From a virus (taxonomy: Duplodnaviria > Heunggongvirae > Uroviricota > Caudoviricetes): a DNA stretch of 6,375 nucleotides. Positions 1-6,375 of the stretch are shown here, one piece after another. The notes under the pieces were generated by a model that was not told where the DNA came from, made no database searches, and saw only the letters and a program-made list of their open reading frames with translations. The stretch lies in the IMG/VR virus record IMGVR_UViG_2531839583_000005. One strand, 5' to 3'. Made by a program: the position numbers and the translations under genes. The first letter of the stretch is position 1. The number at the start of each line of letters is the position of its first letter.

Positions 1-1444
1 AATCAACCGGCTGAAGGCGCTGGTTGCGAAACTGCAACGTATGCAGTTCGGTAAAAGCTCAGAAAAACTTCGTGCAAAAACCGAACGGCAGATACAGGAA
101 GCACAGGAGCGAATCAGCGCACTTCAGGAAGAAATGGCGGAAACGCTGGGTGAGCAATATGACCCGGTACTGCCATCCGCCCTGCGCCAGTCTTCAGCCC
201 GTAAACCGTTACCGGCCTCACTTCCCCGTGAAACCCGGGTTATCCGGCCGGAAGAGGAATGCTGTCCTGCCTGTGGTGGTGAACTCAGTTCTCTGGGATG
301 TGATGTGTCAGAGCAACTGGAGCTTATCAGCAGCGCCTTTAAGGTTATCGAAACACAACGTCCGAAACAGGCCTGTTGCCGGTGCGACCATATCGTGCAG
401 GCACCAGTACCTTCAAAACCCATTGCACGCAGTTATGCCGGAGCGGGGCTTCTGGCCCATGTTGTCACCGGGAAATATGCAGACCATCTGCCGTTATACC
501 GCCAGTCAGAAATATACCGTCGTCAGGGAGTGGAGCTGAGCCGTGCCACACTGGGGCGCTGGACAGGTGCTGTTGCTGAACTGCTGGAGCCGCTGTATGA
601 CGTCCTGCGCCAGTATGTGCTGATGCCCGGTAAAGTCCATGCTGATGATATCCCCGTCCCGGTCCAGGAGCCGGGCAGCGGTAAAACCCGGACAGCCCGG
701 CTGTGGGTCTACGTCCGTGATGACCGTAACGCCGGTTCACAGATGCCCCCGGCGGTCTGGTTCGCGTACAGTCCGGACCGGAAAGGTATCCATCCACAAA
801 ATCACCTGGCCGGTTACAGCGGTGTGCTTCAGGCCGATGCTTACGGTGGTTACCGGGCGTTATACGAATCCGGCAGAATAACGGAAGCCGCGTGTATGGC
901 TCATGCCCGGAGAAAAATCCACGATGTGCATGCAAGAGCGCCCACCTACATCACCACGGAAGCCCTGCAGCGTATCGGTGAACTGTATGCCATCGAGGCA
1001 GAGGTCCGGGGCTGTTCAGCAGAACAGCGTCTGGCGGCAAGAAAAGCCAGAGCCGCGCCACTGATGCAGTCACTGTATGACTGGATACAGCAACAGATGA
1101 AAACACTGTCGCGTCACTCAGATACGGCAAAAGCGTTCGCATACCTGCTGAAACAGTGGGATGCACTGAACGTGTACTGCAGTAATGGCTGGGTGGAAAT
1201 CGACAACAACATCGCAGAGAACGCCTTACGGGGAGTGGCCGTAGGCCGGAAAAACTGGATGTTCGCGGGTTCCGACAGCGGTGGTGAACATGCGGCGGTG
1301 TTGTACTCGCTGATCGGCACATGCCGTCTGAACAATGTGGAGCCAGAAAAGTGGCTGCGTTACGTCATTGAACATATCCAGGACTGGCCGGCAAACCGGG
1401 TACGCGATCTGTTGCCCTGGAAAGTTGATCTGAGCTCTCAGTAA
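1..1444 (+). CDS. tnpC: IS66-family transposase (TnpC/ORF3-like), 5'-truncated by the window edge (codon phase starts at nt 2)
   Basis: The frame of ORF 41..1444 is open back to the window start (nt 2-40 translate [13 protein letters not shown] before the first in-window Met) and ends at TAA 1442-1444. The translation carries blocks I recognise as IS66 TnpC: N-terminal heptad-like Leu/Gln-rich segment, Cys-rich zinc-finger-like motif (CCPACGG ... CCRCDH), and conserved blocks [65 protein letters not shown] and NNVEPEKWL. The true start codon is upstream of the window. Confidence 0.9.
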
Positions 1445-1474
1445 ATATCAATACGGTTCTGACGAGTCGCTTAC
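1445..1474 (+). repeat. Putative right terminal inverted repeat region of the IS66-family element
   Basis: Sequence atatcaatacggttctgacgagtcgcttac; its reverse complement begins GTAAGCGACTCGTCAG, and IS66-family ends begin with GTAA(GCG). The exact IR length cannot be set without the left end, which is outside the window. Confidence 0.55.
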
Positions 1475-1482
1475 AAATGTGA
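1475..1482 (+). other. U: Residual 3' end of the lambda-type tail terminator gene U (last two codons plus TGA stop) abutting the IS end; candidate copy of the 8-bp target-site duplication
   Basis: AAATGTGA lies directly between the IS terminus (1474) and the V ribosome-binding site. ATG-TGA at 1477-1482 is in the position and phase expected for the end of U, 7 nt before the V start, as in lambda. IS66-family elements make 8-bp duplications (established knowledge). Confidence 0.45.
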
Positions 1483-1485
1483 GGA
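1481..1485 (+). promoter_or_regulatory. Shine-Dalgarno sequence (GAGGA) for V
   Basis: GAGGA sits 4 nt upstream of the ATG at 1490. Confidence 0.6.
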
Positions 1486-1489
1486 CGCT

Positions 1490-2230
1490 ATGCCTGTACC
1501 AAATCCTGTAATGCCGGTGAAAGGTGCCGGGACCACCCTGTGGGTTTATAAGGGGAGCGGTGACCCTTATGCGAATCCGCTTTCAGACGTTGACTGGTCG
1601 CGTCTGGCAAAAGTTAAAGACCTGACGCCCGGCGAACTGACCGCTGAGTCCTATGACGACAGCTATCTCGATGATGAAGATGCAGACTGGACTGCGACCG
1701 GGCAGGGGCAGAAATCTGCCGGAGATACCAGCTTCACGCTGGCGTGGATGCCCGGAGAGCAGGGGCAGCAGGCGCTGCTGGCGTGGTTTAATGAAGGTGA
1801 TACCCGTGCCTATAAAATCCGCTTCCCGAACGGCACGGTCGATGTGTTCCGCGGCTGGGTCAGCAGTATCGGTAAGGCGGTGACGGCGAAGGAAGTGATC
1901 ACCCGCACGGTGAAAGTCACCAATGTGGGACGTCCGTCGATGGCAGAAGATCGCAGCACGGTAACAGCGGCAACCGGTATGACCGTGACGCCAGCCAGCG
2001 CTTCCGTAGTGAAAGGGAAGAGCACCACGCTGACCGTGGCATTCCAGCCGGAAGGCGCAACCGACAAGAGCTTCCGTGCGGTGTCAGCGGATAAAACAAA
2101 AGCCACCGTGTCGGTCAGTGGTATGACCATCACCGTGAAAGGTGTTGCTGCAGGCAAGGTCAACATTCCGGTCGTATCCGGTAATGGTGAACTTGCTGCG
2201 GTTGCAGAAATCAACGTCACCGCCAGTTAA
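1490..2230 (+). CDS. V: Phage lambda-type major tail (tube) protein V, 246 aa, with C-terminal Ig-like domain
   Basis: ORF 1490..2230 translates [36 protein letters not shown]..., which I recognise as lambda gpV at the same length. It is preceded by an SD and is first in the conserved order V-G-T-H-M-L. Confidence 0.95.
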
Positions 2231-2245
2231 TCCGGAGAGTCAGCG

Positions 2246-2668
2246 ATGTTCCTGAAAACCGAATCATTTGAACATAACGGTGTGACCGTCACGCTTTCTG
2301 AACTGTCAGCCCTGCAGCGTATTGAGCATCTCGCCCTGATGAAACGGCAGGCAGAACAGGCGGAGTCAGACAGCAACCGGAAGTTTACTGTGGAAGACGC
2401 CATCAGAACCGGCGCGTTTCTGGTGGCGATGTCCCTGTGGCATAACCATCCGCAGAAGACGCAGATGCCGTCTATGAATGAAGCCGTTAAACAGATTGAG
2501 CAGGAAGTGCTTACCACCTGGCCCACGGAGGCAATTTCTCATGCTGAAAACGTGGTGTACCGGCTGTCTGGTATGTATGAGTTTGTTGTGAATAATGCCC
2601 CTGAACAGACAGAGGACGCCGGGCCTGCAGAGCCTGTTTCTGCGGGAAAGTGTTCGACGGTGAGCTGA
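2246..2668 (+). CDS. G: Tail assembly chaperone G, 140 aa
   Basis: ORF 2246..2668 translates MFLKTESFEHNGVTVTLSELSALQRIEHLALMKRQ..., recognised as lambda gpG. SD GGAGAG at 2234-2239. Position is immediately after V and before the tape measure gene. Confidence 0.93.
   Translation: MFLKTESFEHNGVTVTLSELSALQRIEHLALMKRQAEQAESDSNRKFTVEDAIRTGAFLVAMSLWHNHPQKTQMPSMNEAVKQIEQEVLTTWPTEAISHAENVVYRLSGMYEFVVNNAPEQTEDAGPAEPVSAGKCSTVS
2644..2650 (+). promoter_or_regulatory. Programmed -1 ribosomal frameshift slippery heptamer G GGA AAG (G to G-T fusion)
   Basis: In the G frame the codons are GGA (2645-2647) and AAG (2648-2650), giving the X XXY YYZ pattern G GGA AAG. After a -1 slip, reading continues from 2650 in the T frame (VFDGELSFALKL...), which is open to 3084. 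This is the established lambda G/GT mechanism. Confidence 0.85.
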
Positions 2669-3084
2669 GTTTTGCCCTGAAACTGGCGCGTGAGATGGGG
2701 CGACCCGACTGGCGTGCCATGCTTGCCGGGATGTCATCCACGGAGTATGCCGACTGGCACCGCTTTTACAGTACCCATTATTTTCATGATGTTCTGCTGG
2801 ATATGCACTTTTCCGGGCTGACGTACACCGTGCTCAGCCTGTTTTTCAGCGATCCGGATATGCATCCGCTGGATTTCAGTCTGCTGAACCGGCGCGAGGC
2901 TGACGAAGAGCCTGAAGATGATGTGCTGATGCAGAAAGCGGCAGGGCTTGCCGGAGGTGTCCGCTTTGGCCCGGACGGGAATGAAGTTATCCCCGCTTCC
3001 CCGGATGTGGCGGACATGACGGAGGATGACGTAATGCTGATGACAGTATCAGAAGGGATCGCAGGAGGAGTCCGGTATGGCTGA
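2650..3084 (+). CDS. T: Tail assembly protein T segment, expressed as the C-terminal part of the gpG-T fusion by -1 frameshifting from G (full fusion is 2246..2649 joined to 2650..3084)
   Basis: The -1 frame relative to G is open from the slippery site to TGA 3082-3084. The translation (...RPDWRAMLAGMSSTEYADWHRFYSTHYFHDVLLDMHFSGL...) matches lambda gpT. It has no SD or ATG of its own; the first codon at 2650 is GTG, reached by frameshift. Confidence 0.88.
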   Translation: MFDGELSFALKLAREMGRPDWRAMLAGMSSTEYADWHRFYSTHYFHDVLLDMHFSGLTYTVLSLFFSDPDMHPLDFSLLNRREADEEPEDDVLMQKAAGLAGGVRFGPDGNEVIPASPDVADMTEDDVMLMTVSEGIAGGVRYG

Positions 3085-5638
3085 ACCGGTAGGCGATCTG
3101 GTCGTTGATTTGAGTCTGGATGCGGCCAGATTTGACGAGCAGATGGCCAGAGTCAGGCGTCATTTTTCCGGTACGGAAAGTGATGCGAAAAAAACAGCGG
3201 CAGTCGTTGAACAGTCGCTGAGCCGACAGGCGCTGGCTGCACAGAAAGCGGGGATTTCCGTCGGGCAGTACAAAGCCGCCATGCGTATGCTGCCTGCACA
3301 GTTCACCGACGTGGCCACGCAGCTTGCAGGCGGGCAAAGTCCGTGGCTGATCCTGCTGCAACAGGGTGGTCAGGTTAAGGACTCCTTCGGCGGGATGATC
3401 CCCATGTTCAGGGGGCTTGCCGGTGCGTTCACCCTGCCGATGGTGGGGGCCACCTCGCTGGCGGTAGCGACCGGTGCGCTGGCGTATGCCTGGTATCAGG
3501 GCAACTCAACCCTGTCCGATTTCAACAAAACGCTGGTCCTTTCCGGTCATCAGTCGGGTCTGACGGCAGATCGTATGCTGGTCCTGTCCAGAGCCGGGCA
3601 GGCGGCAGGGCTGACGTTTAACCAGACCAGCGAGTCACTCAGCGCACTGGTTAAGGCGGGGGTAAGCGGTGAGGCTCAGATTGCGTCCATCAGCCAGAGT
3701 GTGGCGCGTTTCTCCTCTGCATCCGGCGTGGAGGTGGACAAGGTCGCTGAAGCCTTCGGGAAGCTGACCACAGACCCGACGTCAGGGCTGACAGCGATGG
3801 CGCGCCAGTTCCATAACGTGACGGCGGAGCAGATTGCGTATGTTGCTCAGTTGCAGCGTTCCGGCGATGAAGCCGGGGCATTGCAGGCGGCGAACGAAGC
3901 CGCAACGAAAGGGTTTGATGACCAGACCCGCCGCCTGAAAGAGAACATGGGCACGCTGGAGACCTGGGCAGACAGGACAGCGCGGGCATTCAAATCCATG
4001 TGGGATGCGGTGCTGGATATTGGTCGTCCTGATACCGCGCAGGAGATGCTGATTAAGGCAGAGGCTTCGTTTAAGAAAGCAGACGACATCTGGAATCTGC
4101 GCAAGGATGATTATTTTGTTAACGATGAAGCGCGGGCGCGTTACTGGGATGATCGTGAAAAGGCCCGTCTTGCGCTTGAAGCCGCCCGAAAGAAGGCTGA
4201 GCAGCAGACTCAACAGGACAAAAATGCGCAGCAGCAGAGCGATACCGAAGCGTCACGGCTGAAATATACCGAAGAGGCGCAGAAGGCTTACGAACGGCTG
4301 CAGACGCCGCTGGAGAAATATACCGCCCGTCAGGAAGAACTGAACAAGGCACTGAAAGACGGGAAAATCCTGCAGGCGGATTACAACACGCTGATGGCGG
4401 CGGCGAAAAAGGATTATGAAGCGACGCTGAAAAAGCCGAAACAGTCCGGCGTGAAGGTGTCTGCGGGCGATCGTCAGGAAGACAGTGCTCATGCTGCCCT
4501 GCTGACGCTTCAGGCAGAACTCCGGACGCTGGAGAAGCATGCCGGAGCGAATGAGAAAATCAGCCAGCAGCGCCGGGATTTGTGGAAGGCGGAGAGTCAG
4601 TTCGCGGTACTGGAGGAGGCGGCGCAACGTCGCCAGCTGTCTGCACAGGAGAAATCCCTGCTGGCGCATAAAGATGAGACGCTGGAGTACAAACGCCAGC
4701 TGGCTGCACTTGGCGACAAGGTTACGTATCAGGAGCGCCTGAACGCGCTGGCGCAGCAGGCGGATAAATTCGCACAGCAGCAACGGGCAAAACGGGCCGC
4801 CATTGATGCGAAAAGCCGGGGGCTGACTGACCGGCAGGCAGAACGGGAAGCCACGGAACAGCGCCTGAAGGAACAGTATGGCGATAATCCGCTGGCGCTG
4901 AATAACGTCATGTCAGAGCAGAAAAAGACCTGGGCGGCTGAAGACCAGCTTCGCGGGAGCTGGATGGCAGGCCTGAAGTCCGGCTGGAGTGAGTGGGAAG
5001 AGAGCGCCACGGACAGTATGTCGCAGGTTAAAAGTGCAGCCACGCAGACCTTTGATGGTATTGCACAGAATATGGCGGCGATGCTGACCGGCAGTGAGCA
5101 GAACTGGCGCAGCTTCACCCGTTCCGTGCTGTCCATGATGACAGAAATTCTGCTTAAGCAGGCAATGGTGGGGATTGTCGGGAGTATCGGCAGCGCCATT
5201 GGCGGTGCTGCCAGTGGTGGAGCATCCGCGTCAGGCGGTACAGCCATTCAGGCCGCTGCGGCGAAATTCCATTTTGCAACCGGAGGATTTACGGGAACCG
5301 GCGGCAAATATGAGCCAGCGGGGATTGTTCACCGTGGTGAGTTTGTCTTCACGAAGGAGGCAACCAGCCGGATTGGCGTGGGGAATCTTTACCGGCTGAT
5401 GCGCGGCTATGCCACCGGCGGTTATGTCGGTACACCGGGCAGCATGGCAGACAGCCGGTCGCAGGCGTCCGGGACGTTTGAGCAGAATAACCATGTGGTG
5501 ATTAACAACGACGGCACGAACGGGCAGATAGGTCCGGCTGCTCTGAAGGCGGTGTATGACATGGCCCGCAAGGGTGCCCGTGATGAAATTCAGACACAGA
5601 TGCGTGATGGTGGCCTGTTCTCCGGAGGTGGACGATGA
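3077..5638 (+). CDS. H: Tail tape measure protein H, 853 aa
   Basis: ORF 3077..5638 translates MAEPVGDLVVDLSLDAARFDEQMARVRRHF..., recognised as lambda gpH at the same length. It has a long charged, alpha-helical/coiled-coil-like central region and a Gly/Ala-rich hydrophobic C-proximal segment. SD AGGAGG at 3063-3068. Its start overlaps the end of T. Confidence 0.95.
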   Translation: MAEPVGDLVVDLSLDAARFDEQMARVRRHFSGTESDAKKTAAVVEQSLSRQALAAQKAGISVGQYKAAMRMLPAQFTDVATQLAGGQSPWLILLQQGGQVKDSFGGMIPMFRGLAGAFTLPMVGATSLAVATGALAYAWYQGNSTLSDFNKTLVLSGHQSGLTADRMLVLSRAGQAAGLTFNQTSESLSALVKAGVSGEAQIASISQSVARFSSASGVEVDKVAEAFGKLTTDPTSGLTAMARQFHNVTAEQIAYVAQLQRSGDEAGALQAANEAATKGFDDQTRRLKENMGTLETWADRTARAFKSMWDAVLDIGRPDTAQEMLIKAEASFKKADDIWNLRKDDYFVNDEARARYWDDREKARLALEAARKKAEQQTQQDKNAQQQSDTEASRLKYTEEAQKAYERLQTPLEKYTARQEELNKALKDGKILQADYNTLMAAAKKDYEATLKKPKQSGVKVSAGDRQEDSAHAALLTLQAELRTLEKHAGANEKISQQRRDLWKAESQFAVLEEAAQRRQLSAQEKSLLAHKDETLEYKRQLAALGDKVTYQERLNALAQQADKFAQQQRAKRAAIDAKSRGLTDRQAEREATEQRLKEQYGDNPLALNNVMSEQKKTWAAEDQLRGSWMAGLKSGWSEWEESATDSMSQVKSAATQTFDGIAQNMAAMLTGSEQNWRSFTRSVLSMMTEILLKQAMVGIVGSIGSAIGGAASGGASASGGTAIQAAAAKFHFATGGFTGTGGKYEPAGIVHRGEFVFTKEATSRIGVGNLYRLMRGYATGGYVGTPGSMADSRSQASGTFEQNNHVVINNDGTNGQIGPAALKAVYDMARKGARDEIQTQMRDGGLFSGGGR

Positions 5639-5964
5639 AAACCTTCCGCTGGAAAGTGAAACCCGGTATGGATGTGGCTTCGGCCCCTTCTGTAAGAAAG
5701 GTGCGCTTTGGTGATGGCTATTCCCAGCGAGCGCCTGCCGGGCTGAATGCCAACCTGAAAACGTACAGCGTGACGCTTTCTGTCCCCCGTGAGGAGGCCA
5801 CGGTACTGGAGTCGTTTCTGGAAGAGCACGGGGGCTGGAAAGCCTTTCTGTGGACGCCGCCTTATGAGTGGCGGCAGATAAAGGTGACCTGCGCAAAATG
5901 GTCGTCGCGGGTCAGTATGCTGCGTGTTGAGTTCAGCGCAGAGTTTGAACAGGTGGTGAACTGA
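5635..5964 (+). CDS. M: Minor tail protein M, 109 aa
   Basis: ORF 5635..5964 translates MKTFRWKVKPGMDVASAPSVRKVRFGDGYSQRAPAGLNANLKTYSVTLSV..., recognised as lambda gpM. SD GGAGG at 5624-5628. Its ATG overlaps the H stop (ATGA). Confidence 0.93.
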   Translation: MKTFRWKVKPGMDVASAPSVRKVRFGDGYSQRAPAGLNANLKTYSVTLSVPREEATVLESFLEEHGGWKAFLWTPPYEWRQIKVTCAKWSSRVSMLRVEFSAEFEQVVN

Positions 5965-6375
5965 TGCAGGATATCCGGCAGGAAACACTGAATGAATGCA
6001 CCCGTGCGGAGCAGTCGGCCAGCGTGGTGCTCTGGGAAATCGACCTGACAGAGGTCGGTGGAGAACGTTATTTTTTCTGTAATGAGCTGAACGAAAAAGG
6101 TGAGCCGGTCAGCTGGCAGGGGCGACAGTATCAGCCGTATCCCATTCAGGGGAGTGGTTTTGAACTGAATGGCAAAGGCACCAGTACGCGCCCCACGCTG
6201 ACGGTTTCTAACCTGTACGGTATGGTCACCGGGATGGCGGAAGATCTGCAGAGTCTGGTCGGCGGAACGGTGGTCCGGCGTAAGGTTTACGCCCGTTTTC
6301 TGGATGCGGTGAACTTCGTTAACGGAAACAGTGACGCCGATCCGGAGCAGGAGGTGATCAGCCGCTGGCGCATCG
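5964..6375 (+). CDS. L: Minor tail protein L, N-terminal 137 codons (3'-truncated by the window end)
   Basis: ATG at 5964-5966 overlaps the TGA of M (TGATG). The frame is open to the window end and translates MQDIRQETLNECTRAEQSASVVLWEIDLTEVGGERYFFCNELNEKGEPVSWQGRQYQPYPIQGSGFELNGKG..., recognised as lambda gpL. It is absent from the ORF track only because no stop codon falls inside the window. Confidence 0.9.
   Translation, partial: MQDIRQETLNECTRAEQSASVVLWEIDLTEVGGERYFFCNELNEKGEPVSWQGRQYQPYPIQGSGFELNGKGTSTRPTLTVSNLYGMVTGMAEDLQSLVGGTVVRRKVYARFLDAVNFVNGNSDADPEQEVISRWRI

Follow-up and report, generated by a model that had tools for sequence, protein, structure and literature searches.

An ISCro1 element against the end of gene U in a lambda-like prophage tail module: a predicted simple insertion at a recurrently used target

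For phage lambda, the T reading frame of the tail module is expressed as a G-T fusion by a -1 frameshift, and Q-modified RNA polymerase passes the terminators of the entire late operon. Tn10/IS10, Tn5 and other DDE transposons have a weak palindromic target consensus. IS insertions in prophages are commonplace, and the case described here, a known IS in a lambda-like prophage, is a finding of a known kind. The element involved, ISCro1, was named in Citrobacter rodentium ICC168, where it is present in 24 copies, many of them on mobile elements; more than half of the IS elements of that genome overall lie on other mobile elements (PMC3072379). ISCro1 is widespread in E. coli. In ST131 it was found in the afa regulatory region, called a hotspot for IS integration by the authors, and the insertion in strain EC958 was given as 2,824 bp (PMC8764528), versus the 2,699 bp measured here. 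Another IS66-family element, ISEc8, is common in the Stx phages of E. coli O157; it has the same gene organisation and also occurs in lambdoid prophages.

The window, by which we mean the whole stretch of DNA analysed (6,375 bp), is the entire draft contig AQEH01000106.1 of assembly GCA_000356045.2, and it ends inside ISCro1. Its features are collected in Table 1. Positions 1-1474 are part of ISCro1, an already catalogued IS66-family element. The tnpC frame is open from the first codon of the window and encodes 480 aa, according to both the ORF listing and a reading of the sequence. Its product has the IS66 domain set, with Pfam matches to DDE_Tnp_IS66 (PF03050, E=3e-103), LZ_Tnp_IS66, zf-IS66 and DDE_Tnp_IS66_C (other ids PF13007, PF13005 and PF13817), so that zinc finger, leucine zipper and C-terminal element are all present beside PF03050. 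The NCBIfam model transpos_IS66 (NF033517) was matched with E=2e-143, at 478 bits versus a cut-off of 180. A megablast search of 5,426 complete E. coli genomes returned identical copies that RefSeq names 'IS66-like element ISCro1 family transposase', and the name ISCro1 rests on this annotation of identical sequences. The element ends at 1474, 30 bases past the tnpC stop, with a tip reading ...ACGGTTCTGACGAGTCGCTTAC (also given as ...GTCGCTTAC), and this right end is identical to that of complete 2,699-bp copies. In full copies the left inverted repeat (IRL) matches the reverse complement of the right one (IRR) at 18 of 26 positions; in the window the repeat that starts with GTAA is seen on the right side.

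Table 1. Features of the 6,375-bp window with their coordinates and the basis of each assignment
Feature	Position	Strand	Basis
ISCro1, right-hand 1,474 bp (IS66 family; full element 2,699 bp)	1..1474	+	0 mismatches to L001 IS positions 1226-2699
tnpC, DDE transposase, C-terminal 480 of 523 codons, TAA stop 1442-1444	2..1444	+	Pfam, NCBIfam
IRR, right terminal inverted repeat, ending ...GCTTAC; GTAA first when read inward	1449..1474	+	IRL versus reverse complement of IRR
AAATGTGA, last 8 nt of gene U including its TGA stop (lambda 8940-8947); predicted right-hand copy of the target duplication	1475..1482	+	Empty sites; L007-L010
V Shine-Dalgarno GAGGA, intact, 4 nt before the ATG	1481..1485	+	Sequence reading; identical in uninterrupted prophages
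V, major tail tube protein, 246 aa, intact	1490..2230	+	Pfam Phage_TTP_12 (E=2e-70) and Big_2
G, tail assembly chaperone, 140 aa	2246..2668	+	TIGR01674 (E=2e-65)
G-T frameshift slippery site GGGAAAG	2644-2650	+	Sequence reading
T reading frame	2650..3084	+	TIGR01715 (E=2e-56)
H, tape measure protein, 853 aa, as in lambda	3077..5638	+	Pfam TMP_2 and Tape_meas_lam_C; TIGR01541
M, minor tail protein, 109 aa	5635..5964	+	Pfam Phage_min_tail (E=1e-39)
L, minor tail protein, first 137 codons, running off the contig end	5964..6375	+	Open frame; PF05100

The original prediction had read this part of the window as an IS66-family transposase gene with its stop at 1444 and an IS terminus near 1474, all of which the domain matches, the TAA codon and the mapped end confirm. 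It had also given the element a size of roughly 2.5 kb; the identity stands and the size is corrected to the 2,699 bp of complete copies, which contain tnpA (678 nt), tnpB (348 nt) and tnpC (1,572 nt). Both tnpA and tnpB occur in all complete copies that match the window at 99.9-100% over their right 1,474 bp. The contig does not reach the left 1,225 bp of the element, which comprise IRL, tnpA, tnpB and the first 43 tnpC codons. ISCro1 copies elsewhere share the tnpA-tnpB-tnpC organisation, GTAA termini and 8-bp duplications, and the 1,474 bp found here are identical; relative to the catalogued element, only the location is particular. ISEc8, the name annotated in records H176-H183, differs in that it has about 71% nucleotide identity to the window over 840-870 nt of tnpC, and is a different element.

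Beyond the IS, positions 1475-6373 align end to end with lambda 8940-13838 (J02459/NC_001416) at 98.6% nucleotide identity, sharing with it gene lengths, gene order and the G-T slippery site. The frames of V, G, T, H, M and the beginning of L are uninterrupted and fall into the expected Pfam/NCBIfam families, in the order U-V-G-(G-T frameshift)-H-M-L, with U represented by its last 8 nt only. Unlike lambda, the locus is interrupted by an IS, at lambda 8940-8947; the comparison covers the V-to-L part of the prophage. The remnant of U, AAATGTGA, is followed by GGACGCT and then by the ATG of V, and from 1475 on the window has 100% identity to uninterrupted lambdoid prophages through the U/V boundary (records H39 onward). 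Many uninterrupted prophages encode an identical V protein and have an empty site reading ...CCTATGAAATGTGAGGACGCTATGCC, and the empty sites in L104-L113 read ...cctatgAAATGTGAggacgctatgcc. Three points of the original prediction are thereby borne out: that the IS sits directly against the last 8 nt of U and the V ribosome-binding site, as seen from the match to empty-site prophages and lambda; that the tail module from V through L is otherwise uninterrupted; and that alignment of 1475-6375 to NC_001416 would locate the insertion point, which it places at lambda 8940-8947.

An exact junction search found no co-oriented ISCro1 at the same junction in complete E. coli genomes, species-representative genomes, or viral or metagenome contigs. 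The exact H protein was found on no contig beyond AQEH01000106.1, and the exact V protein leads to uninterrupted prophages only.

We extracted both junctions from every complete-genome record with ISCro1 near V, in either orientation. Exact 8-bp direct duplications were present in 23 of 23 V-anchored instances and in 3 of 3 instances anchored on the capsid gene E, and the expected phage gene lies on the far side of the IS in all 23 V-anchored cases. Only the right copy of the duplication is visible in the window; among relatives the duplication is exact in 26 of 26 complete insertions. In four genomes (L007-L010) an inverted ISCro1 occupies the same target, with AAATGTGA on both sides, and RefSeq annotates a V of full length (741 nt) and a U of 396 nt, the latter truncated solely because the retrieved sequence ends there. 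Given the 8-bp duplications throughout the family, we read the 8 nt beside the IS as the right-hand duplication copy and predict that U is complete. Since the duplication regenerates the U stop codon, neither U nor V should be broken.

The overall explanation that we consider probable is a simple, complete ISCro1 insertion at the U stop, a preferred target of the element. An ISCro1 copy would have transposed into a prophage with an essentially lambda tail module, using the staggered 8-bp target AAATGTGA and facing the same way as the late operon. The predicted left junction would read ...CCTATGAAATGTGA/GTAACCGG... (the IS side also given as GTAACCGGCTC), U would keep its stop codon, and ISCro1 would be a 2.7-kb spacer between two intact genes. 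That U is intact and ISCro1 complete in this particular strain is predicted from the duplication rule of its relatives. The ISCro1 part is identical to other copies and the phage flanks are 1-4% diverged between strains, so the insertion is recent relative to prophage divergence, which supports the suggestion of a recent event made when the locus was first described.

The contig stops 1,474 bp into ISCro1, and nothing further upstream is seen. The window might instead hold a truncated right-end fragment, or the border of an IS-mediated inversion or deletion between two ISCro1 copies, and U and the head genes would then not be found beyond the left side of the IS. Relatives of this kind exist. 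Exceptions among the 23 V-anchored instances are L022 (2,607 bp, with a 92-bp internal deletion), L021 (2,693 bp, with frameshifts) and L006 (tandem pair, 6-bp loss), and solo 105-nt right-end fragments occur in Stx phages. We nevertheless judge this alternative unlikely. The visible 1,474 bp do not differ from intact copies, the other 20 of the 23 relatives have a single 2,699-bp copy, the matching duplications and the expected far-side gene are found in all 23, and draft assemblies commonly break inside repeats. A simple insertion predicts ...CCTATGAAATGTGA joined to GTAACCGGCTCATTT, continuous across the IS.

ISCro1 recurs in this part of the phage genome. We identified it in the FII-Z-U-V region of lambda-like prophages in 35 of the 5,426 complete E. 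coli genomes, at 16 positions clustered around U/V. These 16 positions, which comprise the public instances and the window, lie between -1333 and +110 when counted from the U stop, and every one has a duplication of its own. Both orientations were seen at three of them (-423, -8 and +13), and the 13 others are nearby with distinct duplications. Counted as combinations of position and orientation, 12 of 19 fall inside 238 bp around the U/V junction (scan statistic P=1.5e-4 over the 2.1-kb range detectable by the query), and the three exact coincidences of position, if insertion were uniform, would have a probability of about 1e-4. Where the same site is occupied, the IS copies differ by 0-3 nt in 2,699 and the right flanks by 31-100 nt in 2,400; the first flank differences lie 12-81 nt from the IS end. 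Because the IS copies are near-identical, the flanks diverge close to the IS, and opposite orientations are not heritable, we treat same-site insertions as independent events. From these sequence comparisons we infer that the target AAATGTGA has been used at least five times, in the window and at least four times in inverted orientation, in distinguishable prophage alleles.

The repeated occupancy of U/V could also descend from one ancestral insertion that was spread by a viable phage, its flanks later recombined, with no target preference at all. An insertion between intact U and V could indeed leave the phage viable, lambdoid phages are highly mosaic, and deposited phage and prophage records include two full ISCro1 copies. 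Inheritance cannot, however, give both orientations at one site, as seen between the window and L007-L010 and likewise at -423 and +13, and the 13 further positions have their own duplications. In most carrier pairs the flank differences start 14-34 nt from the IS end, which would require repeated recombination breakpoints almost at the IS, and a target model built from unrelated insertions predicts the census sites (see below). We therefore find a single ancestral event quite improbable. An assembly chimera, in which an IS contig was misjoined to a lambda tail contig, is hardly credible: the source is draft short-read data and repeats form both contig ends, but the join coincides to the base with the end of the IS inverted repeat, a terminus that a random misjoin would ignore, the 8-bp target is a genuine ISCro1 site in other, complete genomes, and AQEH01000106.1 is reported for three samples.

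The preference of independently inserting ISCro1 copies for this region is not exclusive. At ≥80% coverage, queries anchored on V returned 23 co-oriented and 12 inverted records, those anchored on the middle of H returned 0 and 3, respectively, and co-oriented queries anchored on the capsid gene E returned 9. An apparent orientation bias was rejected, as it had been forced by a co-oriented-only query; the 12 additional records emerged with an inverted-IS query. An exclusive U/V hotspot was likewise rejected, given the insertions in E and H and viral flanks distributed over A, B, C, E, H and J. One site in E, GTTTGATC, about 60 nt into the gene, was reused exactly in H10407/SEC470, DLI.6n and one viral contig. 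In a scan of viral contigs for IS termini, 10 of the 81 flanks listed lie in the lambda-type terL-J region, in A, B, C, E, U (-276), V (+61) and H, with three in J; in this sample, which was not anchored on V, 2 of those 10 late-region flanks among the 81 listed are near U/V. Overall, Z-U-V is the densest of the regions sampled and shows exact-site reuse, and the regional preference is moderate.

Accounting for part of this preference, 32 complete, non-redundant contexts of ISCro1 insertion share a symmetric base pattern. Two bases outside the duplication, C is found on one side in 16 of the 32 and G on the other in 20. Positions 3 and 6 of the duplication are A/T; G is absent from position 3 and C from position 6, and positions 4-5 favour Y-R. 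A half-site model was trained on 70 viral-contig flanks, all of them outside Z-U-V. It gave the 16 census positions a mean score of 1.6, a value attained in none of 50,000 resamples, versus a background of -1.7. Insertion sites are also richer in AT (mean over 50 bp of 0.49 versus 0.43, P=5e-5), with neighbouring sites sharing one patch. No 40-bp stretch of the 2.1-kb range is richer in AT than the site in the window (99th percentile); the site at the Z/U boundary stands at the 94th percentile of 40-bp AT content.

ISCro1 shows a weak palindromic target pattern over 12 bp (C...W Y R W...G) and lands preferentially in locally AT-rich patches, which in lambda coincide with gene junctions. This resembles Tn10/IS10 and Tn5 in its symmetric preference centred on the staggered cut, and ISCro1 reuses sites in both orientations. 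The target pattern has low information content, and the most-used site is not a top-scoring match. Specific hot sites are lambda 8940 (AAATGTGA), GCATCAAC at the end of Z and GTACCAAA at the start of V. The palindromic pattern and AT-richness account only partly for the heat of the U/V spot, because the site in the window reaches just the 70th percentile in the half-site model and high-scoring motif sites near U/V are, by the same model, no denser than elsewhere. An additional regional factor appears to act on the target choice of ISCro1. Mimicry of the IS ends, as in IS30-like targeting, was considered and rejected, as shuffled sequence yields IRL/IRR matches just as good as the best ones in the 2.1 kb (P=0.96), and the latter include none at U/V. 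No local hairpin or inverted repeat was found at the insertion site.

In the original prediction the element separates the head and terminator genes from the tail genes, and it could be polar on tail expression, making the prophage tail-defective, or be read through by Q-antiterminated polymerase. No terminator-like hairpin was found on the sense strand of the co-oriented ISCro1, and no sigma-70-like promoter was found in the element. Read-through into V-J is plausible, given that Q-modified polymerase passes terminators and that the sense strand showed no terminator-like site. After induction, late transcripts made by Q-modified RNA polymerase would extend across the co-oriented ISCro1 into V-J, and V would be translated from its own intact ribosome-binding site. 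Tail production may therefore drop without being lost entirely. Expression, or the translational coupling between U and V, may suffer to some extent. A phage genome of lambda size would grow to about 51 kb with the added 2.7 kb, and might thereby reach or exceed what can be packaged.

Two other effects of the IS on V were evaluated. An outward-directed IS promoter driving V was rejected for want of a sigma-70-like site. Masking of the V ribosome-binding site by RNA structure was also rejected, as the folds are no more stable than those of shuffled sequences (z=+1.05 for the junction and z=+0.85 for the native sequence). In a small hairpin the V Shine-Dalgarno sequence is paired with the IS tip, but nothing supports a role for it.

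The value added by this locus is modest and lies in the evidence for a recurrent exact 8-bp target and in a first sketch of a palindromic preference; no description of an ISCro1 target consensus or of a tail-gene hotspot was found in the literature searched. Little is known about how IS66-family elements choose their targets, and the census offers a testable 12-bp symmetric pattern together with hot sites in lambda coordinates. The recurrent hits on head-tail genes are one concrete route to defective E. coli lambdoid prophages or to passenger IS, and are of relevance to prophage-typing and induction studies. More speculatively, and rather doubtfully in our estimate, ISCro1 could have a mechanistic preference for the short AT-rich junctions of the head-tail region (E start, Z end, U stop and V start) and so repeatedly modify lambdoid prophages, and the co-oriented copy at the U stop could ride in a functional phage, with its transposase genes transcribed from the late promoter at induction. 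If this were true, the spread of ISCro1 would be linked to phage induction.

The window corresponds in full to one draft contig, AQEH01000106.1 (GCA_000356045.2), with position 1 at a break 1,474 bp inside the IS66-family element ISCro1 and position 6375 at a break inside gene L. Since it is an entire contig broken inside the insertion sequence and L, both ends are assembly breaks and not biological boundaries. At the junction of ISCro1 with the tail genes, the read-through RNA could form a small hairpin in which the IS tip GTCGCTTAC pairs with the flank GTGAGGAC, comprising the U stop and the V Shine-Dalgarno sequence. Both fold predictions, minimum-energy and centroid, contain the hairpin; the overall fold that holds it is not better than shuffled sequence.

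The tail region of the window is also matched by MW057783.1 ("Campylobacter phage CJLB-4", 48,361 bp), labelled a phage of Campylobacter jejuni, with coverage, identity, and bit score equal to those of phage lambda. This record is probably lambda DNA, a contaminant or spike-in deposited under a different name.

A second target that ISCro1 has reused exactly, GTTTGATC, is found ~60 nt into the capsid gene E. It is occupied in H10407/SEC470, DLI.6n, and one viral contig, and ECONIH5 carries another insertion, at GTTTCTGC, 12 bp downstream of this target (L115/L116 junctions, NZ_CP007594.1, NZ_CP103974.1; L096, L117). Two strains each carry two lambdoid prophages that have ISCro1 in their head-tail regions. 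Strain A1 (NZ_CP029328.1; L003, L014) has a copy at -42 relative to the U stop, co-oriented with the late operon, and an inverted copy at -1062, along with IS3-family elements inserted in FI and in T. H10407 (L013, L115) has ISCro1 in U at -127 as well as in E.

Gene U of E. coli O103:H2 strain 129 contains two head-to-tail copies of ISCro1, totaling 5,392 bp, or 2 x 2,699 minus 6. Where the two copies meet, the sequence is ...CGCTTAC|GGCTCATTT; the left repeat of the second copy is therefore missing its initial 6 nt (GTAACC). The 8-bp duplication that flanks the pair, TACACGGG, is preserved. The pair may be a relic of a transposition intermediate with abutted ends. At nearby sites, two other copies are in decay. 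One (NZ_CP081192.1) is reduced to 2,607 bp by a 92-bp internal deletion and has a frameshifted tnpC, and the RefSeq annotation of U extends into it. The other (NZ_CP117959.1) is 6 bp short, with tnpA, tnpB, and tnpC all frameshifted.

Coordinates of ISCro1-related features and of the lambda-like match
Record	Coordinates	Feature
Window	1466-1486	Possible junction RNA hairpin
L006 (NZ_AP038976.1)	83-5474	Tandem ISCro1 pair
L022 (NZ_CP081192.1)	376-2982	Decaying ISCro1
L021 (NZ_CP117959.1)	378-3070	Decaying ISCro1
MW057783.1	8859-13757	Match to window tail region
FM180578.1	55375-55479	ISCro1 right-end fragment
AP012539.1	55989-56093	ISCro1 right-end fragment
LC645408.1	62678-62782	ISCro1 right-end fragment

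Many records of Stx1- and Stx2-converting phages have, near the record end, only a ~105-nt fragment that shares 94-95% identity with the far right end of ISCro1 (window 1370-1474). This looks like a solo IS-end remnant common to a phage lineage.
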